Part shown: in pieces, positions 3,540 to 16,884 of the stretch
How the letters are laid out: each line of letters begins with the position of its first letter
Position numbering within the stretch: the stretch's first letter is position 1
Assembly (NCBI GenBank): GCA_004298335.1
Contig: SCTG01000102.1
Coordinates: 21,413 to 85,412 of the forward strand
Direction: 5' to 3'
Length of the DNA stretch: 64,000 bases
DNA from: Nitrospirota bacterium
GTDB lineage: Bacteria > Nitrospirota > Nitrospiria > Nitrospirales > NS-4
The notes under the pieces: generated by a model
Database searches by the model: none
What the model was told of the DNA's origin: nothing
The model's input: the letters and a program-made list of their open reading frames with translations, nothing else
Program-made: the position numbers and the translations under genes

Positions 3540-4898
3540 ATGCCCGGCGGACCGCCTCCGCGAGCCCTCTACACCGTTTCGGCCCTCACCGCTCTTCTCC
3601 GCCTGCACATCGAGTCCGCGTTTCCCGATGTCTGGGTGGAAGGGGAAGTCTCCAACCTGCGTGTGCCCACCTCCGGCCACGCCTACTTCACGCTGAAGGA
3701 CGCCAACAGCCAGATCCGGGCGGTGCTGTTCCGATCCGCCGGACGCGCCCTGCGATTTGCCCTGCAGGACGGCATGCAGCTGATCTGCCGGGGCCGCGTG
3801 ACGGTCTACGAGCCGCGGGGCGATTACCAGGTGATCGTCGAGCACGCCGAGCCGAAAGGCGTGGGGGCGCTGCAGCTCGCCTTCGAGCAGCTCAAGGAAC
3901 GGCTGGCGGCCGAAGGCCTGTTCGAGCAGGCAAGGAAGCGGCCGCTGCCGTTCCTGCCCCACCGGATCGGGGTGGTGACCTCGCCGACGGGCGCGGCCGT
4001 CCGTGACATCATTCAGGTCGCTCGTAAACGATTTCCCGGGATTGAGATCGTGCTGAATCCCGTGGCGGTCCAGGGCGAGCACGCGGCCGGCGAGATCGCC
4101 CGCGCGATTGAGGAGCTGAACGAGCTCGGCGGCTTTGATGTCCTGATCGTCGGGCGTGGCGGAGGGTCGCTGGAGGATCTCTGGCCGTTCAATGAAGAGA
4201 TCGTCGCCCGGGCCATCGCGGCCTCACGCATTCCCGTCGTCTCGGCCGTGGGGCATGAGATCGACTATACCATCGCCGACTTTGTGGCCGACGTACGGGC
4301 GCCCACGCCGTCGGCGGCCGCGGAACTGGTGGTGCGTGACCGTCGGGACCTGCTCGGCCGAGCGAAGAGCCTGTGGGAACGGACTGCGCAGGCCATGCGC
4401 ACGGACCTCCGGGACCGCCGCGCGCGCGTCGAAGCCGAGCGGCGCGGCCTTCTCGATCCGACGGCGCTGGTGGCGCGGGCCATGCAGCGCCGCGACGACC
4501 TCGAAATGCGCCTGCGCCTGGCCCAGGCAAACCGTCTCGGCGGCGTGCGGGCGGCGGTCGAGGCGCTGCGGCAGGAGGTCATGCTGCGCAGCCCGGTTCA
4601 GCGGATCCAGCGGGGCCTGGCCACGCTGCCTCACCTGCAGTTGCGGCTCCATCAGCGGATGCGGACGGCGCTCGAACTGGGGCGGCGGTCCCTGCAGGAG
4701 GCGGTCGGCGCGGTCCAGGCGCTGAGTCCGTTGGCAATTCTGGCGCGGGGGTACAGCATCACCCGCCGGTGGCCCGACCTGACGATCCTGCGCGCGGCGT
4801 CGGACGCGGCGCCCGGGGAAACGGTGCACGTGCGGCTGGCCTCGGGCGAACTGCTGTGCGAGATCCGGCGCGTCGGCGAGAAACTGTTGCCGGATTGA
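3540..4898 (+). CDS. xseA: exodeoxyribonuclease VII large subunit
   Basis: 452 aa with an N-terminal OB fold (VWVEGEVSNLRVPTSGHAYFTLKD), a catalytic core (GVVTSPTGAAVRDI...RGGGSLEDLWPFN) and a coiled-coil tail. Confidence 0.9.
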   Translation: MPGGPPPRALYTVSALTALLRLHIESAFPDVWVEGEVSNLRVPTSGHAYFTLKDANSQIRAVLFRSAGRALRFALQDGMQLICRGRVTVYEPRGDYQVIVEHAEPKGVGALQLAFEQLKERLAAEGLFEQARKRPLPFLPHRIGVVTSPTGAAVRDIIQVARKRFPGIEIVLNPVAVQGEHAAGEIARAIEELNELGGFDVLIVGRGGGSLEDLWPFNEEIVARAIAASRIPVVSAVGHEIDYTIADFVADVRAPTPSAAAELVVRDRRDLLGRAKSLWERTAQAMRTDLRDRRARVEAERRGLLDPTALVARAMQRRDDLEMRLRLAQANRLGGVRAAVEALRQEVMLRSPVQRIQRGLATLPHLQLRLHQRMRTALELGRRSLQEAVGAVQALSPLAILARGYSITRRWPDLTILRAASDAAPGETVHVRLASGELLCEIRRVGEKLLPD

Positions 4899-6923: not shown

Positions 6924-7244
6924 TCAGTAGATGGGGACCGACGGGTCGATCTGCTGGGACCAGGCGATGATGCCCCCCGTGAGGTTTTTCACGTTCTTGA
7001 ACCCCTGTTGGAGGAGAAACTGGGTGGCGTCCATGCTCCGCATCCCCATCTTGCAATGGATGACGATCTCGCCGTTGGGATCGATGTTCTTGTATTCGGT
7101 GCCCAGCGTGCCCAGCGGAATGAGCTTGGCGCCTTCAATTTTGGCGATGTTATATTCCCAGGGCTCCCGGACGTCGATGAGGACGACCTTCTCGCCCTGA
7201 TCCATTTTCTGTTTCAGTTCCTGGACCGTGATGGTGAAACCCAT
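6924..7244 (-). CDS. single-domain rhodanese-like sulfurtransferase
   Basis: 106 aa. LIDVREPWEY...IVIHCKMGMRS active-site loop with Cys. Confidence 0.8.
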   Translation of the reverse strand: MGFTITVQELKQKMDQGEKVVLIDVREPWEYNIAKIEGAKLIPLGTLGTEYKNIDPNGEIVIHCKMGMRSMDATQFLLQQGFKNVKNLTGGIIAWSQQIDPSVPIY

Positions 7245-7326
7245 GGCGCGAATCCTCCCTGTGGAGATGATAGTAAGGCGTCGTTCTTCTTGCTGTCAAC
7301 CGGCGGACTTGTAAAACGGGGGCGCG

Positions 7327-7671
7327 TTGGACGACCCGATCAAAACGACTGAAGGCGGCGACGCCATTGTGGTGCTGATTACGGCGGCCTCGCGGGAGGA
7401 GGCCGGACGGATCGCCCGGCGGCTGGTTGAGGATCGGCTGGCCGCCTGCGTCAATATCGTGCCCCACGTGCGGTCGCTCTTCATCTGGGAGCAGAAGCTG
7501 TCCGAGGAGGACGAGGTGCTCCTGGTGGTCAAATCGCGCCGCGCCCGGTTCGGGCAATTGGCGGCGGCCGTCAAGCAGCTCCACAGTTACAGCGTGCCGG
7601 AGATCATCGCCCTGCCCGTCGTCCTGGGGTCCGCCGACTATCTCCGCTGGGTGTCCGAGTCGACGCCCTGA
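7327..7671 (+). CDS. cutA: divalent-cation tolerance protein CutA
   Basis: EEAGRIARRLVEDRLAACVNIVPHVRSLFIWEQKL...HSYSVPEIIALPV matches the CutA1 family pattern. TTG start is uncertain. Confidence 0.8.
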   Translation: MDDPIKTTEGGDAIVVLITAASREEAGRIARRLVEDRLAACVNIVPHVRSLFIWEQKLSEEDEVLLVVKSRRARFGQLAAAVKQLHSYSVPEIIALPVVLGSADYLRWVSESTP

Positions 7672-7746
7672 AGGCGTTCCGCTACGCCAAAACAGGCAAA
7701 TCTCTCATAAAAATGCCGACTTTGTTCGAAAATGCACGGAGGCTTA

Positions 7747-7774
7747 TTGACATTTTCTGAAGCGGTATGATACT
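7747..7774 (+). promoter_or_regulatory. candidate promoter TTGACA-16 nt-GATACT upstream of the M23 peptidase gene
   Basis: Perfect -35 in a locally AT-richer intergenic stretch. The -10 matches 4 of 6. Confidence 0.35.
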
Positions 7775-7813
7775 CGTTACACCCTACTTTTTAATGGCCC
7801 GGATTCTGGATTT

Positions 7814-8740
7814 ATGAGCCAATCTGACCACGAATTTCATATCGTTGTTTTTCCGGGTGCGACCTCTCGTCCCCGCCGGTTCAGCATCAGGCGGCGGACC
7901 GTCAAAATCCTCCTGATCGCCGGGTTGCTGGCCGTTATCGTTGAGGCGCTGTTTCTGGTTCAGTACGTGACCCGGAGCGGGGAGATCTGGGAATTGGAGG
8001 CCCTCCGGTCCGAAGCGGTCCAGCATCGCCAGCAGGCCAGCGCGCTGTCGTCCTCGCTGGAAGATCTCCGCAAGCAATTATCGACCATGCGGGAAGTGAA
8101 CATCCGGATCCGGATGATGCTGGGGCTGGACCCGCCGAAGGTGCCGCCGTCACCGTTGGGCCTGGGCGGGAAGGAAGAGTCCAGCGTGGCCACGCAGCCT
8201 GGCGGGATGGGGGGCGAACGCGAGAGCCTCGTGAGCATCTCAGCGCAATTGCAGCAGAAGCTCACATGGTTGAAGGATGAGGCCATCGTCCAGGAACACT
8301 ATCTGCAGGAACTGAAGGGCATCATCGGTGAACGGAAGGCGCAATGGGCATCCACGCCGTCGATCTGGCCGGTGCGCGGTTGGGTGTCCTCGGGGTTTGG
8401 GCGGAGGATTTCGCCGTTCACGGGCAATGACACCATGCATGGCGGCGTGGATATCTCGGCGCCGATGCGCACGCCGGTGATCGCGCCTGCTGCCGGAACG
8501 GTCACCTTCGCCGGCAGCGAAGCGGGCCTGGGCAACACCGTCAGCCTCTTGCACGGGTACGGCATGCGCACGATCTACGGGCACTTGGACAAGCTCAAGG
8601 TGAAGACGGGCCAGCCTGTCAGGCGGGGAGACATTCTCGGCTGGGTGGGCAATACGGGCCTGTCAACCGGCCCGCATCTGCATTATGAAATCGAGGTCGG
8701 CGGGACCGCCCTCGACCCGCTGAAGTACATCATTGACTAG
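7814..8740 (+). CDS. M23 family metallopeptidase (EnvC/NlpD-like, TM anchor plus coiled-coil)
   Basis: C-terminal HGGVDISAP...GNTGLSTGPHLHYEI catalytic motifs are intact. N-terminal membrane anchor and coiled-coil region. Confidence 0.85.
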   Translation: MSQSDHEFHIVVFPGATSRPRRFSIRRRTVKILLIAGLLAVIVEALFLVQYVTRSGEIWELEALRSEAVQHRQQASALSSSLEDLRKQLSTMREVNIRIRMMLGLDPPKVPPSPLGLGGKEESSVATQPGGMGGERESLVSISAQLQQKLTWLKDEAIVQEHYLQELKGIIGERKAQWASTPSIWPVRGWVSSGFGRRISPFTGNDTMHGGVDISAPMRTPVIAPAAGTVTFAGSEAGLGNTVSLLHGYGMRTIYGHLDKLKVKTGQPVRRGDILGWVGNTGLSTGPHLHYEIEVGGTALDPLKYIID

Positions 8741-9698
8741 GCCGGCCGGCTCCCGCCGGCACCGCTGCCGTGCCAGGTTTGAACATTTCCTCGACTGACC
8801 GGCTCTTCCACTCCACGTAGTAATCGGATATCCCGAACGCGCGCATGACGGTCGCCGGCATGTCCATCAGCGACACCGGCTGTTTGATCTCGTATCCCGC
8901 CTTGATGCCCGGCCCCGCCGCGATCCAGGGAATCGTCATGTCTTCAGGCATCGTGGTTCCATGGGTGGTGCCGTGGCCCCCGTGGTCGGCCGAGACGAGA
9001 AAGGTGGTCTGTTCGTAGAGCCCCAGCTCCTTGAACCCCTTGAGGAGCGCACCGATCGCCCGGTCGATGTCCTCGACTGTCCTGAGGTAGGGCGTGCTCA
9101 TCCAGCCGTCGGCATGCCCCGCGACATCGGCCTCGGCAAAGTGGATGAGAAACAGGGAAGGTTTGGTGGAGTCGGTGGCGGTTTTATAGGCGTTGATGAC
9201 GTCAGCGGCGATCTTTTTGGCGGTGCAGCCGGGCTCGTTGATGCTGCACACGTGGAGTGCCAGCCGCCGGTCCTGCTTCGTCACGTGCAGGAGTTTCTCC
9301 TTCTGGATGAACGCAGCGCCCCACTTGCTGCCGTTGAATGTGGCGATTTCGAAGATGGTCGGCGCCTTCAGGTAGCCGCGCTGGGGCTCATACTCGTTCC
9401 AGTCCACCCCGTGGGTCTCGACCGGCAGGCCCGTCAGCATGGACGTGAAAGCGGGCAGGGTCCGGCTGGGAGTGACGGTCTGCGCCTTCATCGTGGAGGA
9501 GCCCCGCTTGATGAGGCTCTCCAGCGCCGGCGCCTTGGCCTGTTTCAGCGCGTCGGGCCGAAGCCCGTCCACGATGATGATGACGACGTTGTCGGCGTAG
9601 GCCGGCGCCTCTGCGGCCGGCGCCTCTGCGGCGAACAAACAGCCAATCAAGAGCAGGACGGCGATCCCGCCCGGAACGATGCGAATGCGGAATGTCAT
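8730..9698 (-). CDS. secreted alkaline-phosphatase-superfamily phosphodiesterase / nucleotide pyrophosphatase
   Basis: Signal peptide, then VDGLRPDAL, TPSRTLPAFTSMLTG...THG and SADHGGHG motifs. Start placed at the internal ATG 9698, which is preceded by GAGGGGG. Confidence 0.8.
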   Translation of the reverse strand: MTFRIRIVPGGIAVLLLIGCLFAAEAPAAEAPAYADNVVIIIVDGLRPDALKQAKAPALESLIKRGSSTMKAQTVTPSRTLPAFTSMLTGLPVETHGVDWNEYEPQRGYLKAPTIFEIATFNGSKWGAAFIQKEKLLHVTKQDRRLALHVCSINEPGCTAKKIAADVINAYKTATDSTKPSLFLIHFAEADVAGHADGWMSTPYLRTVEDIDRAIGALLKGFKELGLYEQTTFLVSADHGGHGTTHGTTMPEDMTIPWIAAGPGIKAGYEIKQPVSLMDMPATVMRAFGISDYYVEWKSRSVEEMFKPGTAAVPAGAGRPSQ

Positions 9699-9807
9699 GC
9701 AACCCCCTCTATGAGTGAAACGGCACAAGCTGCGGCATTCTACACAATGCGTTGAACGGAATGCCACTCGGAATCCCGATTTTCTAGCGGGACGCCCCAC
9801 GCAATCC

Positions 9808-9836
9808 TTGACTCCGGGCTGACCCTTTTGTAGAGT
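9808..9836 (+). promoter_or_regulatory. sigma70-like promoter TTGACT-17 nt-TAGAGT
   Basis: TTGACT 9808-9813 and TAGAGT 9831-9836. It precedes a run of seven co-directional, closely spaced genes. Confidence 0.5.
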
Positions 9837-9864
9837 GAGCGGGCAAGCGCGCTCTCCCGGCAAT

Positions 9865-10206
9865 GTGGAGGTGGCGGTGTCGGATTCCCAGTCCGCGGCG
9901 GTGCCCTTCGCGGCGCAAGCCGTGTCGTTTCATGAGATGCTGGCGACGGGCAAAATCCCCGACGGGCTGCTCTCCAGCCCGTACGTGGCCGAGCAGTTCG
10001 TCGAACGGCTTGTCCATTACGTGCTCAGCATTCCGGCCGGCAGCTACTCGATGGCCAACCTGTCCAAGCTACTCGAGCAGGTGGACCCCCGCCAGCAGGT
10101 GTCCTTTTTCAAGAAGCTGAAGGAGACGAGCCCGGAGAGCCTCAAGCATTTCGCCCCCCTCTATTACGGGTTCATGTCCGAGTTCAGCGATCTGCTCTTT
10201 ACCTAA
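9865..10206 (+). CDS. hypothetical protein, Cys-free, no recognised family
   Basis: ORF in the track from 9835, but that GTG lies inside the predicted -10, so the start is moved to in-frame GTG 9865 (GTG 9877 or ATG 9937 are also possible). No signal peptide and no Cys. Confidence 0.45.
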   Translation: MEVAVSDSQSAAVPFAAQAVSFHEMLATGKIPDGLLSSPYVAEQFVERLVHYVLSIPAGSYSMANLSKLLEQVDPRQQVSFFKKLKETSPESLKHFAPLYYGFMSEFSDLLFT

Positions 10207-10255
10207 GCCCCGCCTGTTTGAAATCCCGTTCGGTTCGGCATACACTGCGGAACGT

Positions 10256-11710
10256 ATGGACTCACTTGTCGAGGGCTTTGCGGCGCGGGCCGCGCGCATT
10301 CCGGTTCACGGGATCGGCCTGTCCGTGGACGTGTTCAGTCCCGATCTGTTGGAGCTGCATCGGACGCTGGAGCAGGCCGGTATCCGACCCGACTATCTGG
10401 AAATCTTCAAGGCTCCGGTGAGGGACCTCGCGCGCGTCCGGGCGGCATTGCCTGGCGTGCCGCTGGCCTATCACGCCGAAGGTCTGTGGCTGATCGATCC
10501 GGCCATGCGCTCTGCGACGCCGTGGCGGCAGGCTGTCGAGACGATCGCCCGCCATGCGGAGGCGATCGGCGCGGGATGGGCCAACCATGAATGCGCCGGC
10601 AAGCAGTTCGGCGGCTACTCCTTCGGGACGTATCTGCCGCCATTACTGACGAATGCCGCGGCGACGGCGGTGGCTGCCAATGCGATGTGGGCGCAGGAGG
10701 GCCTGGACGAGTGGTTTGCCCGAAAAGGCAGGCCCGACGCCGCTCCGTTGTTGCTGCTTGAACTGCCCCCTCTGACCTACTTCGGGTTCGGCAATCTGCC
10801 GGTCTCGGAATTTTTTGCGCGGATTGCCGAAGGGGCGTCACTTGGACTGGTGCTCGACATCGGTCACCTCTGGACCCACTGGCGGTATCGTGAGCGCCGG
10901 CGCTTCCGGAGCCTGGAGGCCTTTGCGGCGGAGTTCCTGGCGACGTTTCCGTTGGACCGGGTCGTGCAGATTCACCTCGCCGGCCTGGGGCTGCACGAAG
11001 ATGGGGACCCGGCGGACCCTCTTCCGCACTGGATTGACCGGCACGACGCGCCCGTCCCGGCCGTCCTCTTCGATCTCCTCAGGCAGGTCCTGGGCCATCC
11101 GGCGCTGGCTGCTCTCAAGGGGATTGCGCTGGAGGTGGATACCAAAGCAGTGCCGGCCATCGTTGAAGAATTCAGACGGCTCTTGGAAGAGCCTGCCTGT
11201 CGGAAGGCGTTGCTCAACGCGCCGGAACGTGCCGGCTTGCCGATGACAATGGTGAGAGAACGTGTTGCCGGGAGCGCCGATCGGGAGTTGGCCGAACTTT
11301 ATGGGGCCTATGCGCGGGTGGCTTCCGGGCGGGAGTCCCTGGAGCAGAGCGCCATCGCCCCACTGGGCGGAGGTCTCGATCCGGAGGGCCTGCACCGGTA
11401 TTTCACCCGCTACCTGCCGCACGAGCTTGTGTGCTGGGGAGGGGACCTCGCCGAGCTGTTTCCTGCCGTCTGGACATCGTTGGAGAAGCGGGGCATCACC
11501 GCCGCGGACTTTCTCCGGTTCTGGTTCGGGCGGCCCCGTCCGGTCGCCGCCCCCTATGACTTCTTCTACGTCAAGCTGGATCGCTGGGTGGAATTCATCG
11601 GGGAGGCCGCTCCCGATCTCATGGGGCAGGTGCAAAAAGAGGCGGAGATTTTGCGCGCGCTCCACACCGAACTGAACGATGAGCCTGCCGTGCTGGGGAA
11701 CCGGACGTGA
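10256..11710 (+). CDS. divergent DUF692-family (MNIO-type, xylose-isomerase-like TIM barrel) protein with an extra ~150-aa C-terminal domain
   Basis: Colinear with the remembered DUF692 motif series: GIGLSVD, YLEIFKAP, PLAYHAEG, ANHECA, YLPPLL, LLLELPP, LVLDIGH, IHLAG, WIDRHDAPVP, LEVD. At 484 aa it is much longer than typical DUF692 proteins. Confidence 0.6.
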   Translation: MDSLVEGFAARAARIPVHGIGLSVDVFSPDLLELHRTLEQAGIRPDYLEIFKAPVRDLARVRAALPGVPLAYHAEGLWLIDPAMRSATPWRQAVETIARHAEAIGAGWANHECAGKQFGGYSFGTYLPPLLTNAAATAVAANAMWAQEGLDEWFARKGRPDAAPLLLLELPPLTYFGFGNLPVSEFFARIAEGASLGLVLDIGHLWTHWRYRERRRFRSLEAFAAEFLATFPLDRVVQIHLAGLGLHEDGDPADPLPHWIDRHDAPVPAVLFDLLRQVLGHPALAALKGIALEVDTKAVPAIVEEFRRLLEEPACRKALLNAPERAGLPMTMVRERVAGSADRELAELYGAYARVASGRESLEQSAIAPLGGGLDPEGLHRYFTRYLPHELVCWGGDLAELFPAVWTSLEKRGITAADFLRFWFGRPRPVAAPYDFFYVKLDRWVEFIGEAAPDLMGQVQKEAEILRALHTELNDEPAVLGNRT

Positions 11711-12429
11711 GCGCGGTTCGCGTCAACAAGTACTTCACGGAGCAGGGCTACTGTTCCCGCCGCGCCGCCGACCGCATGATCAAGGACGGCCGCGTTCGGA
11801 TCAACGGCCGCGTGGCGGTGCTGGGCGACCAGGTGGCAGGCGCGGACGTAGTGAGCGTGGACGGGCTGGTGGTGAAGAGCCGGCCCCGTCCCGTCTATCT
11901 GGCCTATCACAAGCCGGTCGGGGTCACGTGCACGACGGAGCCACACGTGGAAGGCAACATCCTCCAGGCAGTGGGCTATCCCGAGCGCATTTTCCCCATC
12001 GGCCGCCTGGACAAGGACTCGTCCGGCCTGATCCTGCTGACCAATGACGGCGACATCGTCAATCTCATCCTCCGGGCCGAGTTCGGACATGAGCGGGAGT
12101 ACAGAGTCACGTTGGACCGGCCGTACTCGCCGACTTTTTTGCGCTGTCTGGAACAGGGCGTGCTCGTGCGGGGCGAGAAGACCCGGCCCTGCCGGACCGC
12201 CAGGGGGGATGCCACCACGTTCCGGATCATGCTGACGGAGGGACGCAACCGGCAGATCCGCCGCATGTGCTCGGCGCTCGGGTACCGCGTGGTGCGGCTG
12301 GTGCGGGTCCGCATCATGCACATTCGCCTGGGGGATCTCCCGGTCGGACAGTGGCGGGAGCTCACACCCAGGGAGCAGGAGAAATTGATCGCGGCCGTTG
12401 GTATTACAGAAGAAAAAGCCGCGTCATGA
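11707..12429 (+). CDS. rluF: RluF/RsuA-family pseudouridine synthase
   Basis: S4 domain (RVNKYFTEQGYCSRRAADRMIKDGRVRING), catalytic GRLDKDSSGLILLTNDG, and NRQIRRMC. GTG start overlaps the upstream stop (GTGA). Confidence 0.85.
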   Translation: MSAVRVNKYFTEQGYCSRRAADRMIKDGRVRINGRVAVLGDQVAGADVVSVDGLVVKSRPRPVYLAYHKPVGVTCTTEPHVEGNILQAVGYPERIFPIGRLDKDSSGLILLTNDGDIVNLILRAEFGHEREYRVTLDRPYSPTFLRCLEQGVLVRGEKTRPCRTARGDATTFRIMLTEGRNRQIRRMCSALGYRVVRLVRVRIMHIRLGDLPVGQWRELTPREQEKLIAAVGITEEKAAS

Positions 12430-14615
12430 TTCCCCCTCGCGTCCTGCTGCTCATCCCTCCGCTCACCCAGCTCAACACGCCCTATCCCTCGACTGCCTAT
12501 CTGGCGGGTTTTTTGAAGCCGCGCGGCTACGAGACGTTCCAGGCGGACGTCGGGATCGAGATGGTCCTCGCGCTCTTCTGCCGGAACGGGCTTGAGCGCG
12601 TGTTCGACCGGCTCGGCCGGATGCCCGGAGACCTGCCGGGGGAAGCACGCCAGATGCTGGCCTTGCAGCGGGCCTACGTCGACTCGATCGACGCCGTGAT
12701 CGGATTTCTCCAGGGGAGAGACCCGGCGCTGGCGCCGCGTATCTGCCAGGGCGGCTTCCTTCCGCAGGGACCGAGATTCGCCGCCGCCCGGACGCAGGCC
12801 GCCGGCGGTTTCGGCGCGCTGGACCGTGCCCGGTACCTGGCCACGCTCTATCTGGAAGATGTGGCCGATCTTGTCCACGAGACCGTGACGCCGCATTTCG
12901 CCATCAACCGCTACGCGGAGCATGTGGGGGCGTCGGCCACGTCCTTCGATTCAATGGCGCGCGCGCTTGCCGAGCCGCCCGGCTTGACGGATGAATTGAT
13001 GCTGGAGGCCTTGTGGCGGCACGTGGACGAAGCCGACCCGGCCCTCGTCGGCCTGACCGTGCCGTTTCCAGGCAACCTGTACGGCGCGTTCCGGATCGCC
13101 CAGGCGCTGAAGGCCCGGCATCCGTCCCTGCGGGTCGCGCTCGGCGGCGGCTACGCCAACACGGAACTCAGGCGGCTGAGCGACCCGCGTCTGTTCGACT
13201 ACGTGGACTACGTGACGTTGGACGACGGCGAGCGCCCGCTGCTCTGCCTCCTGGAACATCTTGCGGGCAAGCGCGACGAAGCTGAGCTGCGGCGGACGTT
13301 CCTGCGGTCTCAAGGGAAGGTTGTGTGGCGGGACGGCGCCCGCGACCCCGAGTTCGGAATGGCGGATCTCGGCACGCCGACGTATGCGGGGCTGCCGCTC
13401 GATCGGTACCTGTCCGTGCTGGACACGCTGAACCCCATGCACCGGCTCTGGTCCGACGGCCATTGGAACAAGCTGACCGTCGCCCACGGCTGCTACTGGA
13501 AGCAATGCACCTTCTGCGACGTGGGCTTGGACTACATCGGCCGCTACGAAGCCGCGCCGAGCGGCATCCTGGCCGATCGCATCGAGGCTCTGATCGCCGA
13601 GACGGGGCGGCGCGGGTTCCACTTCGTGGACGAGGCGGCGCCGCCGGTCGGTCTCAAGGAGCTGGCGCTGACGTTGCTGGAGCGCGGGGTGACGATCTCG
13701 TGGTGGGGAAACATTCGCTTCGAATCGGCGTTCACGCCGGACCTCTGCCGCCTCCTGGCAGCCTCCGGCTGCATCGCCGTCAGCGCCGGGCTGGAAGCGG
13801 CTTCCGACCGGCTTCTGGAGGCCATGAAGAAGGGCATCACCGTAGGCCGGACTGCGCGCGTTGCAGCGGCCTTCCGTGGGGCTGGCATCATGGTACACGC
13901 CTATCTCATGTATGGGTTGCCGGGAGAAACGGTCGCCGAGACGGTGGACAGCCTGGAGCGCGTGCGGCAACTGTTCGTGCAGGACCTGATCCAATCGGCC
14001 TTCTGGCACCGGTTCGTGGCGACGGCCCACAGCCCGATCGGGCTGGACCCGGCGGCGCACGGCATCCGGATCACCGGCCCCGCGTTCGGCGGGTTCGCGG
14101 AGAACGATCTCACCCATGATGATCCGCTGGGAGAGGCGCCCGAATCGCTCGGCGAGGGGTTGCGAAAGGCCTTGTACCATTATATGGAGGGGGAGAGCCT
14201 CGCGGCAGACGTGCGGAGCTGGTTTGCGCGGCCCGTGCCGAAGCCGAAGGTGCCACGTGCGTGGGTCGCCCGCGTTCTTGCGGAACAGCCAGCAGGCGAC
14301 GATCCCATGGCGGAGCGGCGTTTTGTCTGGGTCGGCGGCACGCCCGTCGTCGAGCCGTCCGGGAAGAGCCGGTGCCGGGTGATCCTTCCCACTCGCGTCA
14401 AGGACGTGCAGGCGCGGATGGCGCCGGAGAAAGCGGACTGGCTGGTGGAGTTGATCCGCACGGCCACGCCCGCGCGCGACCGGAGGCCCGCAGGGTATCC
14501 TTCGCTCAAGGAGGTCCGGGCCGGGTATCCGTTTGGCGGGACCCGCGGGTTCGACGCCCTGTTGCGGTCGCAATCCTGGCGGCACGCGCGGGCGGCCGGG
14601 CTGTTGCTCGTCTAA
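12426..14615 (+). CDS. B12-binding-domain radical SAM protein (729 aa)
   Basis: N-terminal LLLIPP...YPSTAYLAGFLK B12-binding-like region, cluster motif HGCYWKQCTFCD, and downstream SAGLEAAS / GLPGET radical SAM core motifs. ATG overlaps the rluF stop (ATGA). The track's earlier start at 12267 is rejected. Confidence 0.8.
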   Translation: MIPPRVLLLIPPLTQLNTPYPSTAYLAGFLKPRGYETFQADVGIEMVLALFCRNGLERVFDRLGRMPGDLPGEARQMLALQRAYVDSIDAVIGFLQGRDPALAPRICQGGFLPQGPRFAAARTQAAGGFGALDRARYLATLYLEDVADLVHETVTPHFAINRYAEHVGASATSFDSMARALAEPPGLTDELMLEALWRHVDEADPALVGLTVPFPGNLYGAFRIAQALKARHPSLRVALGGGYANTELRRLSDPRLFDYVDYVTLDDGERPLLCLLEHLAGKRDEAELRRTFLRSQGKVVWRDGARDPEFGMADLGTPTYAGLPLDRYLSVLDTLNPMHRLWSDGHWNKLTVAHGCYWKQCTFCDVGLDYIGRYEAAPSGILADRIEALIAETGRRGFHFVDEAAPPVGLKELALTLLERGVTISWWGNIRFESAFTPDLCRLLAASGCIAVSAGLEAASDRLLEAMKKGITVGRTARVAAAFRGAGIMVHAYLMYGLPGETVAETVDSLERVRQLFVQDLIQSAFWHRFVATAHSPIGLDPAAHGIRITGPAFGGFAENDLTHDDPLGEAPESLGEGLRKALYHYMEGESLAADVRSWFARPVPKPKVPRAWVARVLAEQPAGDDPMAERRFVWVGGTPVVEPSGKSRCRVILPTRVKDVQARMAPEKADWLVELIRTATPARDRRPAGYPSLKEVRAGYPFGGTRGFDALLRSQSWRHARAAGLLLV

Positions 14616-14623
14616 CGGCTGGG

Positions 14624-15367
14624 ATGAACGTGGCGGACTACGCGGTGCAAGTCTTCACGAACAAGGGTGCCGTGGCGCACGCGGCGGCAGAGGTGTTCGT
14701 CAACCTGGCGCCGCAGCCTGGCGGGAGCCGGCGGCCGTTCCGCGTGGCGTTGGCCGGCGGCGAGACGCCCCAGGCCTTCTACGAGCGGCTGGCGTCCGCG
14801 GAGTGCCGGCATCGGGTCGCGTGGGAGCAGGTCTCGTTTTTTTTCGGGGATGAGCGCGCGGTGCCGCCCGATCATCCGGACAGTAATTACCGGATGGCCC
14901 ATGGCGCGCTGTTCCGCCCTCTGGACATTTCCGGCGAAAACGTTTATCGGATGAAGGCGGACATGCCCGACCTGGAGGCTGCGGCCGCGGACTATGAGCG
15001 CGAGCTGCACACCGCGTTCGAGGGCGAGCGCGTGCCGCACTTCGACATGATTTTGCTCGGCATGGGGCCGGACGGGCACACGGCGTCGCTCTTTCCGGGC
15101 AGTCCCGCGCTCGCCGAGTGCCGGCGTCTGGTGGTGCCGGTGACGGACGCGCCCAAGCCGCCGCCGCGCCGGCTCACGCTGACGGTGCCGGTGCTGAACG
15201 CCGCCCGGCTCGTGCTGTTCATGGCGACAGGCGCGGACAAAGCCCAAGCGCTCCGGGAAGTGCTGAAGGGGACCGCGTCGCCCGATCAATACCCGGCCAA
15301 GCATGTGCGGCCGGGGCCGGAACGTCTGGCCTGGCTCGTGGACGAGGCGGCCGGAGGCGCTCTCTGA
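14624..15367 (+). CDS. pgl: 6-phosphogluconolactonase
   Basis: FRVALAGGETP...FFFGDERAVPPDHPDSNY...LLGMGPDGHTASLFP motifs. Internal ATG chosen 9 nt after the upstream stop. Confidence 0.85.
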   Translation: MNVADYAVQVFTNKGAVAHAAAEVFVNLAPQPGGSRRPFRVALAGGETPQAFYERLASAECRHRVAWEQVSFFFGDERAVPPDHPDSNYRMAHGALFRPLDISGENVYRMKADMPDLEAAAADYERELHTAFEGERVPHFDMILLGMGPDGHTASLFPGSPALAECRRLVVPVTDAPKPPPRRLTLTVPVLNAARLVLFMATGADKAQALREVLKGTASPDQYPAKHVRPGPERLAWLVDEAAGGAL

Positions 15368-15377
15368 AGGAGGCAGT

Positions 15378-16220
15378 ATGCTTGAAACCGTCGATCTGAC
15401 CCTGTCGTTGACCAAGGAAGCCTACAAGAAAAAGGCCCCTCCGCTGCGCGAGAAGCTCCGGCTCTTGCAGTATCAGTGCAAGAATGCGGAGATCCCCATC
15501 GTCATCGTGTTCGAAGGCTGGGACGCGTCCGGCAAGGGGGGGGTCATCGCGCGCCTGCTCGAGCGGATCGACCCCCGGGGATTCAAAGTCCATCCGGCGC
15601 GTCCGCCGACGACCGAGGAAGAGGCCAAACCGTTCCTCTGGCGCTACTGGGTGCGGCTTCCGCAGGACGGCGAGATCGCGCTGTTCGACCGGTCCTGGTA
15701 TGGCCGTGTGATGATCGAGCGGGTGGCCAAGATGGTTCCCAAGAAAGTCTGGCGGAGAGCGTTCGAGGAGATCAGCCAGTTCGAGCGGCAAGCGGCCGAT
15801 GACGGCGCGGTGATCGTCAAGTTCTTTCTCCACATCTCCAAGAAGGAACAGCGGCGTCGGCTCAAGAAACTGGCCAAGGACAAGTTCGAACGATGGCGCG
15901 TCACCAAATGGGACTGGAAGCACCACAAGGACTACGACAAATATGTGAAGGCGATCGAAGAAATGGTCGCCAAGACGGACGCGCCGTACGCGCCCTGGAC
16001 GATTGTCGAGGCGACGGACAAGCGGTTCGCCGAGCTCAAGGTCTTTGCCACTCTGGTGAAGGCGATGGAAACGGCGATCGCCTGGCGGAAGGTCCACGGC
16101 ACGGAAATCGGACGGAGCAAAGTGGCGCGGGAAGCCAAGAAGGCGGCGCCGTCGGCCAAGCCGGCGGGAAAGGAGAAGGGACATGTTCGAAAAGGTGGAT
16201 CTCAGCAAAAAGTTGCCTGA
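15378..16220 (+). CDS. ppk2: polyphosphate kinase 2 family protein (first of a tandem pair)
   Basis: FEGWDASGKGG Walker A and the FDRSWYGRV lid motif. ATG 15378 preceded by GAAGGAGG. Ends in a Lys/Ala-rich tail. Confidence 0.85.
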   Translation: MLETVDLTLSLTKEAYKKKAPPLREKLRLLQYQCKNAEIPIVIVFEGWDASGKGGVIARLLERIDPRGFKVHPARPPTTEEEAKPFLWRYWVRLPQDGEIALFDRSWYGRVMIERVAKMVPKKVWRRAFEEISQFERQAADDGAVIVKFFLHISKKEQRRRLKKLAKDKFERWRVTKWDWKHHKDYDKYVKAIEEMVAKTDAPYAPWTIVEATDKRFAELKVFATLVKAMETAIAWRKVHGTEIGRSKVAREAKKAAPSAKPAGKEKGHVRKGGSQQKVA

Positions 16221-16884
16221 AAAGCGCTACTGGGAAGAGATCAAGAAGTGGCAGGTGCGTCTCCGCGATCAGTCCATGCGGCTCTTCAACGAGAAGCGGA
16301 TGGCGGTGGCCGTCTTCGAAGGCTGGGACGCGGCCGGCAAGGGCGGCAGCATCAAGCGCGTGACCGAGACGCTGGACCCCCGCGGCTTCAACGTGAATAC
16401 GTTCGCGGCGCCCAGCGGGGAGGAGGGGCGCCATCATTACCTCTGGCGGTTCTGGAAGGCCCTTCCTCCGTTGGGGCAAGTCGCCATCTTCGACCGGTCG
16501 CATTACGGGCGGGTGATGGTGGAGCGGGTGGAAGGGTTTTGCACCGAGCAGGAGTGGAAGCGGGCCTTCCGCGAGATCAACGAGTTTGAATGGCAGTTAT
16601 CGAACTTCGGAACGGTGGTGGTGAAGTTCTGGCTGCACATCGACCAGGACGAGCAGCTGCGGCGGTTCAAGGGGCGGGAGCTCGATCCCTTCCGGTCCTA
16701 TAAGCTCACGGACGAGGACTGGCGCAACCGGGCCAAGTGGGATGATTACCGGGGCGCGGTGGAGGAGATGATCGAGAAGACCAGCACGGCCTGGGCGCCC
16801 TGGACCATCGTGGAGGCCAACGACAAGTTCTACGCGCGGGTCAAGGTGGTGCAGACGCTCACGAAAGCGCTGGAAGCGGTGTAG
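16183..16884 (+). CDS. ppk2: polyphosphate kinase 2 family protein (second of a tandem pair)
   Basis: FEGWDAAGKGG and FDRSHYGRV. Its own ATG is preceded by AAGGAG. Overlaps the upstream ppk2 by 38 nt in another frame. Confidence 0.85.
   Translation: MFEKVDLSKKLPEKRYWEEIKKWQVRLRDQSMRLFNEKRMAVAVFEGWDAAGKGGSIKRVTETLDPRGFNVNTFAAPSGEEGRHHYLWRFWKALPPLGQVAIFDRSHYGRVMVERVEGFCTEQEWKRAFREINEFEWQLSNFGTVVVKFWLHIDQDEQLRRFKGRELDPFRSYKLTDEDWRNRAKWDDYRGAVEEMIEKTSTAWAPWTIVEANDKFYARVKVVQTLTKALEAV

Follow-up and report, generated by a model that had tools for sequence, protein, structure and literature searches.

The subject of this report is a gene at positions 10256–11710 (+) of a 64,000-nucleotide stretch of DNA from a Nitrospirota bacterium (GenBank assembly GCA_004298335.1, contig SCTG01000102.1, positions 21,413 to 85,412 of the forward strand). 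This stretch, called the window below, belongs to a metagenome-assembled genome (MAG), has a high GC content (~64%) and is a housekeeping region. The gene encodes a protein of 484 amino acids, referred to here as the enzyme, which matches, at 100% identity, the database entry ‘DUF692 family protein’ from a Nitrospirae bacterium MAG and which we place among the oxidative enzymes that depend on multinuclear non-heme iron (MNIOs). The protein is made up of a TIM barrel of the MNIO/DUF692 type (residues 1–320, 10256..11215), a disordered linker (residues 321–339, 11216..11272) and an all-helical C-terminal domain (residues 340–475, 11273..11680). Upstream on the same strand lies a gene for a cysteine-free protein of 109 amino acids, small109 (9877..10206), and downstream, also on the (+) strand, are genes for a pseudouridine synthase of the RsuA/RluF family (11707..12429) and for a B12-binding radical SAM protein of ~729 amino acids with its ATG at 12426 (12426..14615).

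An earlier note, made from the sequence alone, had described the enzyme as a non-canonical MNIO whose first part follows the order of DUF692 motifs. The motifs GIGLSVD, YLEIFKAP, PLAYHAEG, ANHECA, LLLELPP, LVLDIGH, IHLAG, WIDRHDAPVP and LEVD do occur in this order, and the assignment was borne out. Pfam PF05114 (MbnB_TglH_ChrH) matches residues 57–297 with E=6e-12 and 45.8 bits, the gathering cut-off being 25, and PF05114 is carried by all of the relatives listed. The equivalog cut-offs of NCBIfam are missed by a wide margin: 33.5 bits vs 400 for ApyH, 30.8 vs 310 for BufB, 16.9 vs 360 for HvfB and 12 vs 600 for ChrH. An AlphaFold2 model of the full protein, built on 28 relatives, is confident, with a mean predicted local distance difference test score (pLDDT) of 89 and a predicted template-modelling score (pTM) of 0.90. 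When it was compared with the Protein Data Bank (PDB) by Foldseek, TglH (8HI7/8HCI), MbnB (7FC0, 7DZ9, 7TCR) and 3BWW took ranks 1–6 with E values from 2e-11 to 6e-8 and target-normalised template-modelling (TM) scores of 0.69–0.78; TglH was the best match (E=2e-11). Structures of endonuclease IV came next in the ranking (E ~1e-7, precisely 1.5e-7; TM ~0.59). Judged by sequence and model, the 484-residue protein is a genuine but non-canonical member of the MNIO superfamily.

The putative metal ligands are H73, H111, E169, D201, H204, H240, D261, H263 and E293. In alignments with characterised MNIOs all nine positions are occupied. Eight of the nine are invariant across the 28 relatives, and at the remaining position H111 is replaced by Leu in P0071 only. 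In an eight-sequence alignment that reaches down to 32% identity, E169, D201, H204, H240, D261, H263 and E293 are invariant; one member of this alignment is truncated at the N-terminus and lacks the region of H73, and another has Gln at H111. The residue types agree with those of TglH (H71/H107/E151/D184/N187/H216/D229/H231/E258; PMC10880893) in the same order at eight of nine positions. The difference lies in the third metal site, where the Asn that is N187 in TglH (PMC10880893) and N175 in HvfB (bioRxiv 10.64898/2026.07.17.739211) is replaced by His204. The change from HLDVNN to VLDIGH, which the earlier note had pointed out against a Neisseria-type sequence, is real: the profile alignment places LDIGH of the enzyme on LDVNN of 3BWW, LDLHN of TglH and DISN of MbnB. 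The motif LPPLxT, an additional feature of the MNIO type, aligns with LPMPFT of 3BWW. An invariant aspartate, D295, follows two residues after ligand E293. We infer that it takes the position of Asp240/242 of MbnB. Asp240/242 is the proposed general base of MbnB (PMC10880893).

Further invariant residues stand beside the ligands. The motifs HECAxK (E112, C113 and K116, encoded at 10589–10603) and LEVDxK (D295 and K297) are unchanged down to 32% identity, and C113 is two residues past ligand H111. These residues could have second-shell, catalytic or substrate-mimicking roles.

Both the enzyme (dN/dS, the ratio of non-synonymous to synonymous substitution rates, ~0.2) and small109 (0.08–0.13) are under purifying selection. 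The observation that prompted this work is real and far beyond chance.

The ~150 residues beyond the barrel, also remarked on in the earlier note, are conserved in the relatives. Between them and the barrel the linker varies strongly in length and sequence in the alignment of the 28 relatives, and pLDDT falls below 50 at residues 325–337. The C-terminal domain proper, of ~140 amino acids, is modelled with helices only and no β-strands, and it carries the motifs YxxYA, YLPxExxxWGG, FP, FxxFWF and PYDFFxxK. No member of a set of 19 gave a trustworthy match to Pfam, no PDB entry matched the domain in sequence, and Foldseek returned no PDB match below E=4. A match to Nitrate_red_del (E=0.16–0.18) was rejected as noise; it was obtained for only one of the 19 members, and no structure of the TorD/NarJ type appeared in the Foldseek search.

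The nature of this domain became apparent from its distribution. Of 1.84 billion representative proteins searched with a profile of the domain, only 85 matched, most of them fusions of 466–508 amino acids or fragments of these, and no other architecture was seen. Four of the 85 are complete stand-alone proteins of 139–147 amino acids. In three of these four a PF05114 gene of 314–334 codons lies directly upstream, with its stop and the start of the partner sharing 4 bp (GTGA or ATGA). The split pairs, in which the partner is a separate gene of 141–147 codons beside an MNIO gene of 314–334, come from other lineages of Nitrospirota and were found in six samples overall: L176 in one, L177 and L178 in two, and L179–L181 in three. 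About 13 more clusters of split-type enzymes, 300–317 amino acids long and labelled Nitrospiria or Nitrospirae, were found, and one split pair is closely related to a fused protein, P0309. Since separate, overlapping genes for the two modules occur in other Nitrospirota lineages, the C-terminal domain is best read as a second subunit that has been fused in Nitrospirales. This makes it a new kind of fused partner subunit, not detectably related to the partners of known MNIOs. The suggestion of the earlier note that the extension may be a fused partner or recognition domain therefore held in its first half, through the split genes and their 4-bp overlaps, and was not supported in its second: strands are absent, and no similarity to DUF2063, to the RiPP (ribosomally synthesised and post-translationally modified peptide) recognition element (RRE), to MbnC or to TglI was detectable.

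The fourth stand-alone domain, P0259 (139 amino acids, L182 200–619), lies on a contig of 45% GC. The 199 nt upstream of it hold no MNIO coding sequence and are rich in stops in all three frames. The partner module may thus sometimes be encoded apart from the enzyme.

A genome scan that took one genome per species found a relative of the enzyme in 240 species-level genomes; the two modules are fused in the window and in about 240 genomes. Nearly every one of the best 80 carries the label Nitrospirales, Nitrospiraceae or Nitrospira, and Ca. Nitrospira defluvii is among them. The enzyme is best placed as a deep branch of the MNIO (DUF692) superfamily, one confined to Nitrospirota. Two clades were compared in detail: clade A, that of the window (at least 50% identity, 14 loci), and clade B (42–48% identity, more than 140 loci fetched), from Nitrospira and relatives. 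The gene order in clade A is M23 peptidase, a sulfatase-like gene of the phosphodiesterase type (−), small109, enzyme, RluF-family pseudouridine synthase and usually the B12 radical SAM gene; 6-phosphogluconolactonase and PPK2 genes are also among the neighbours. In clade B the order is LOG (−), CBS (−), enzyme, Dus, Maf and a hypothetical gene, and those sub-lineages that lack the upstream CBS gene retain the enzyme–Dus pair. One split version is flanked by a TRAM/5-methyluridine (m5U) methyltransferase gene (−) and by that for a NUDIX protein, and QueC and QueD are close by; another is followed by the genes for ribosomal protein S21 and a DEAD-box helicase. Distant fused versions adjoin TetR/MCP genes, dTDP-sugar genes or a gene for a DnaJ-domain protein.

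The stop of the enzyme shares 4 bp with the start of the RluF-family gene in 13 of 14 clade-A loci and with the start of Dus in 130 of 144 clade-B loci. In the window the TGA of the enzyme and the GTG of the pseudouridine synthase overlap in GTGA, and the stop of the pseudouridine synthase and the start of the radical SAM gene overlap in ATGA; both were read directly. The pseudouridine synthase matches Pfam S4 and PseudoU_synth_2 and exceeds the cut-off of TIGR00093; with the RluF model of NCBIfam it scores 260 bits, below the cut-off of 318. At none of the loci examined was there an RRE protein, a leader protease, an exporter or transporter, or a conserved small precursor gene, small109 in clade A being at most a candidate. 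The enzyme gene does not appear to belong to a RiPP gene cluster.

A consensus scan placed a promoter-like site, TTGACT-17-TAGAGT, at 9808..9836 (+), 5′ of small109; it is weak, with 9/12 matches. A second, TTGAAA-17-TACACT, was placed at 10218..10246 (+), within the 49-bp spacer between small109 and the enzyme and ending 9 bp 5′ of the enzyme ATG. The window, L001, L013, L014, L016 and L018 share the conserved spacer element GTTTGAAATCCC...GGCATACACT; this suggests that the enzyme operon can be transcribed from this predicted promoter independently of small109. Predicted promoters of the sigma-70 type are conserved directly 5′ of the enzyme in both clades. In clade B (L021–L092, ~3850–3960) a strongly conserved intergenic block has the appearance of two promoters set back to back, with CTTGTCAAA-N17-TAGACT on the (+) strand and TATACT, a divergent -10, on the opposite strand, where AAGTATAGCAGA yields it. 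Recurrent ‘peptides’ from this upstream region, translated in all three frames, were considered and rejected as a gene; what is conserved there is the sigma-70-type promoter TTGTCA-N17-TAGACT together with the divergent -10 element. Rfam found no riboswitch or other RNA family in positions 7000–16000 of the window or in six clade-B loci.

We consider it probable that the enzyme is a self-contained, two-module MNIO that acts on a conserved cellular molecule rather than on a secreted RiPP. The N-terminal barrel would bind a di- or trinuclear metal cluster, most likely of iron by the precedent of the family, in which site 1 would be formed by H73, H111 and E169, site 2 by E169, D201, H240 and E293, and site 3 by D201, H204, D261 and H263. 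The helical domain, tethered by its flexible linker, would be a dedicated partner subunit fused to the barrel; its probable place is against the barrel, where it would help to shape the substrate cavity or to stabilise the active cofactor. In this it would play a part analogous to that of MbnC, TglI and HvfC for their MNIOs, with no detectable kinship to them. The gene appears to be a conserved, core gene with its own predicted promoter, and it would be translationally coupled to genes of RNA modification. Its likeliest role would be to modify a conserved cellular target, and not a dedicated secreted precursor, by O2-dependent oxidation; the making of a classical peptide antibiotic or metal binder is probably not its task.

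Several points weigh against this explanation. His204 at site 3 yields exactly the ligand set of endonuclease IV, which leaves room for Zn or Mn as the metal and for hydrolytic chemistry. The partner role of the helical domain is read from gene fusion and fission and from the high pTM of the model. The gene is apparently a core gene, as judged from its breadth across MAGs. Finally, the adjacency of small109 in clade A is perfect (14/14), which leaves small109 as a candidate substrate.

A bolder reading can be put forward only tentatively, and we think it unlikely to hold. Here the enzyme and its private helical partner, fused or split, would act on a part of the translation apparatus, whether a ribosomal protein, an RNA-modification enzyme, a tRNA or rRNA, or a modified nucleotide. 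It would be the first multinuclear metalloenzyme of the MNIO type to serve the housekeeping of a whole bacterial lineage and not the tailoring of natural products. Such a target would explain the coupling to enzymes of pseudouridine, dihydrouridine and m5U formation, as well as the neighbouring genes for S21, the DEAD-box helicase, Maf and NUDIX. Among the papers that could be searched, none linked MNIO/DUF692 proteins with Nitrospira, or MNIOs with ribosomes or tRNA.

The likeness to endonuclease IV raises the question of an enzyme directed at RNA or nucleotides, with a trinuclear site of the endonuclease IV type. It would be a hydrolase or oxidase acting on RNA, on a modified nucleoside or nucleotide or on the translation apparatus, together with the uridine-modifying enzymes with which it is co-expressed. 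The sequence of E. coli Nfo was checked, and H69, H109, E145, D179, H182, H216, D229, H231 and E261, which we take to be its Zn ligands, are of the same residue types as the enzyme's at nine of nine positions, including D-x-x-H and D-x-H, whereas characterised MNIOs have Asn at site 3. Nfo-family structures are also the next-best fold matches after the MNIOs, and four independent contexts are related to RNA: RluF in clade A, Dus followed by Maf in clade B, the m5U methyltransferase with NUDIX, QueC and QueD, and S21 with the DEAD-box helicase. In other respects the enzyme stands closer to the peptide-modifying MNIOs than to Nfo. Pfam PF01261 gave no match to the 484-residue protein at E<=0.1, a comparison of the family profile with E. 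coli Nfo by hhalign gave a probability of 0.1% and thus no similarity, and the TM score of 0.59 compares with 0.69–0.78 for the MNIOs. Kinship with Nfo at the level of sequence was rejected on the hhalign result, so that the likeness is limited to the fold and the types of the ligands. The protein and both of its domains are uniformly acidic, with an isoelectric point of ~5, which disfavours a general RNA binder. Three other lineages have unrelated neighbours (the TetR/MCP genes, the dTDP-sugar genes and the DnaJ-domain gene), neighbourhood is weak evidence in compact genomes, and the RNA pattern was spotted post hoc. We regard this alternative as unlikely.

The remaining question of substrate concerns small109. 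In the earlier note the open reading frame (ORF) upstream of the enzyme began at 9865. Homologues support a start at GTG 9877, preceded by GGAGG, which gives 109 amino acids; 9865 and the start of the longest ORF, 9835, are unlikely. Two other observations of the note stand: the protein is without cysteine and ends in ...YYGFMSEFSDLLFT (C-terminal peptide ...HFAPLYYGFMSEFSDLLFT), and cysteine is absent from all 15 diverse homologues checked. Searches of Pfam, NCBIfam and the PDB revealed no relative. There are 617 homologues, and small109 is specific to Nitrospirales; the 120 that were listed are 70–96% identical, and the source labels given are all Nitrospirota. The tail FAPLYYGFMxEFxxLLFT is invariant.

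The possibility that small109 is the dedicated substrate of a protein-type, RiPP-like system follows from its position. In such a system the C-terminal domain would recognise small109, and the barrel would oxidise a residue in its aromatic tail, for example by hydroxylation of Tyr or Phe or by a cross-link. The gene adjoins the enzyme upstream on the same strand in every clade-A locus, with a gap of ~8–10 nt in L019 and L020. Both families are labelled Nitrospirota only, and the invariant tail would offer a target; PbsCD, which modifies Phe, is our example of such chemistry. The premise of the earlier note, that MNIO substrates contain cysteine, no longer holds: Asp, Asn, Phe and homocitrulline have been published as substrate residues (PMC12452194, PMC13174530). 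C-terminal and aromatic residues are among the known targets of MNIOs, as are bona fide proteins (PMC12452194, PMC12257519), and in published surveys many of their precursors are unlinked to the enzymes (PMC12452194).

The weight of the evidence is on the other side. Adjacency is confined to clade A: small109 was beside the enzyme in none of the ~130 loci fetched with upstream sequence from clade B, which makes up the majority, and was not present in the fetched flanks of split or distant versions. In the complete genome of Nitrospira sp. UBC2 (CP092081) small109 (near 1.771 Mb) and the enzyme (near 2.002 Mb) are ~231 kb apart; in Nitrospira small109 follows a MoxR/DUF58/transglutaminase operon and precedes a gene for a hypothetical protein of 122 amino acids. 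The conserved predicted promoter separates the two genes in the clade of the window. Because small109 is conserved over its whole length with a low dN/dS, tighter than that of the enzyme, it looks like a folded protein and not like a leader and core precursor. It is at most a candidate substrate, and a dedicated substrate–enzyme system seems to us distinctly improbable.

The surroundings of small109 in Nitrospira show some features of their own. The conserved 122-codon gene is next after small109 in L008–L012 (positions 8001–8783). In L010 a phage-type integrase gene and a Rep_trans gene lie immediately 5′ of small109, which would fit an integration hotspot. L011 has a spurious-looking ORF, located just upstream of the region of the 122-codon gene and small109, that holds ...GFEPATLALARRCSTTELFPH..., a sequence resembling a translated tRNA gene.

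It is highly improbable that the protein is a non-oxidase of the wider xylose-isomerase-like TIM-barrel clan (a sugar isomerase, epimerase or dehydratase) or an inert scaffold mislabelled by Pfam, for while some sources label relatives ‘sugar phosphate isomerase/epimerase’, a few relatives have precomputed PF01261 matches and one distant relative follows dTDP-sugar genes, the full set of nine multinuclear ligands is conserved where sugar isomerases of the clan need none such, the best matches in fold and sequence are MNIOs, and purifying selection and an obligatory partner module favour an active, specialised enzyme.

Among known systems TglHI and MbnBC are closest in fold and ligands, MovX is closest in having an extra domain of its own and acting on a residue other than Cys, and endonuclease IV is closest in the ligand set. 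TglHI of Pseudomonas syringae provides the best match of the barrel in the PDB by structure as well as by sequence, and it also needs a second polypeptide to complete the catalytic pocket (PMC10880893). The two differ in that the enzyme has His204 for Asn187 and an invariant Glu75 for Asn73 of TglH, at an identity of ~18%; in that TglI holds an RRE, unrelated to the helical domain; and in that TglHI belongs to a RiPP/amino-acid-analogue cluster with the scaffold peptide TglA. MbnBC resembles the enzyme in fold (TM 0.74–0.78), in its multinuclear site, in an acidic residue after the last Glu ligand (D295 in the enzyme) and in its obligate partner. MbnC differs in fold from the C-terminal domain, however, MbnA is a Cys-containing peptide encoded alongside, and MbnB has Asn at site 3 (DISN vs DIGH).

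MovX, from a methanobactin-like cluster of Vibrio, does without a separate partner because of an extra domain within its own chain, and it acts on a C-terminal Asn (PMC12452194). Its extra domain is a winged helix-turn-helix, RRE-like, and it is encoded in a RiPP cluster next to its precursor, in contrast to the all-helical domain of the enzyme, which has no detectable relative. HvfBC and BufBC, of the oxazolins and bufferins, pair a DUF692 enzyme with a cofactor-tuning partner (DUF2063-RRE), much as the barrel is paired with the C-terminal domain here, and in these systems the residues of site 3 matter for function even if the site is empty (bioRxiv 10.64898/2026.07.17.739211). Their precursors, on the other hand, are rich in Cys and have signal peptides, and the NCBIfam models for HvfB and BufB give the enzyme 17–31 bits vs cut-offs of 310–360. 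Endonuclease IV shares the superfold and the site-3 His in D-x-x-H, and it differs in the lack of similarity in sequence or profile and in its lower structural similarity; Nfo is a single-domain, Zn3 phosphodiesterase of DNA repair with no partner.

MNIOs are now understood as RiPP-tailoring enzymes with partners of the MbnC, TglI or DUF2063/RRE type and with precursors encoded nearby. The Nitrospirota enzyme would break three of these expectations: the type of partner, the conserved precursor or cluster, and, through its lineage-wide retention, the distribution. What is new is a subfamily with a new partner module, His at site 3, no apparent biosynthetic cluster and the behaviour of a core gene in Nitrospirales, whose nitrite oxidisers and comammox bacteria are of global importance. 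The occurrence of split and fused forms makes the partner relation directly testable by co-expression of the halves, and in the replacement of Asn by His nature has made an experiment on the third metal site, whose role is debated. Should the substrate prove to be a protein of the cell or an RNA, the biological reach of MNIO chemistry would extend well past natural products.

Other genes near the enzyme deserve mention. The B12 radical SAM protein matches Pfam Radical_SAM and B12-binding, and its NCBIfam matches are weak only, to models of the PhpK type and of RiPP C-methyltransferases. It was considered as a RiPP co-enzyme comparable to ApyD and was rejected as an obligatory partner: its gene is present in 11 of the 14 clade-A loci and missing from L005, L019 and L020, from clade-B operons and from all the other contexts. 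In the clade-B enzyme–Dus–Maf operon the fourth gene encodes a conserved hypothetical protein of 187–221 amino acids with no Pfam match, present in nearly all loci (11371–12036 in L006/L007 and equivalents), which could be functionally linked to the enzyme. In the distant fused relatives L093, L096 and L098 the enzyme gene is divergent from a gene for a TetR-family regulator, followed by a chemoreceptor-like gene, and in L096 and L098 an efflux pump of the MFS/HlyD type is also near; this hints at regulated rather than constitutive expression in that lineage. The tightly packed, same-strand string of genes that includes the enzyme extends, in the ORFs of the window and in L001, to two consecutive genes for PPK2-type polyphosphate kinases (15303–16220 and 16183–16884, both +), which follow a 6-phosphogluconolactonase-like gene.

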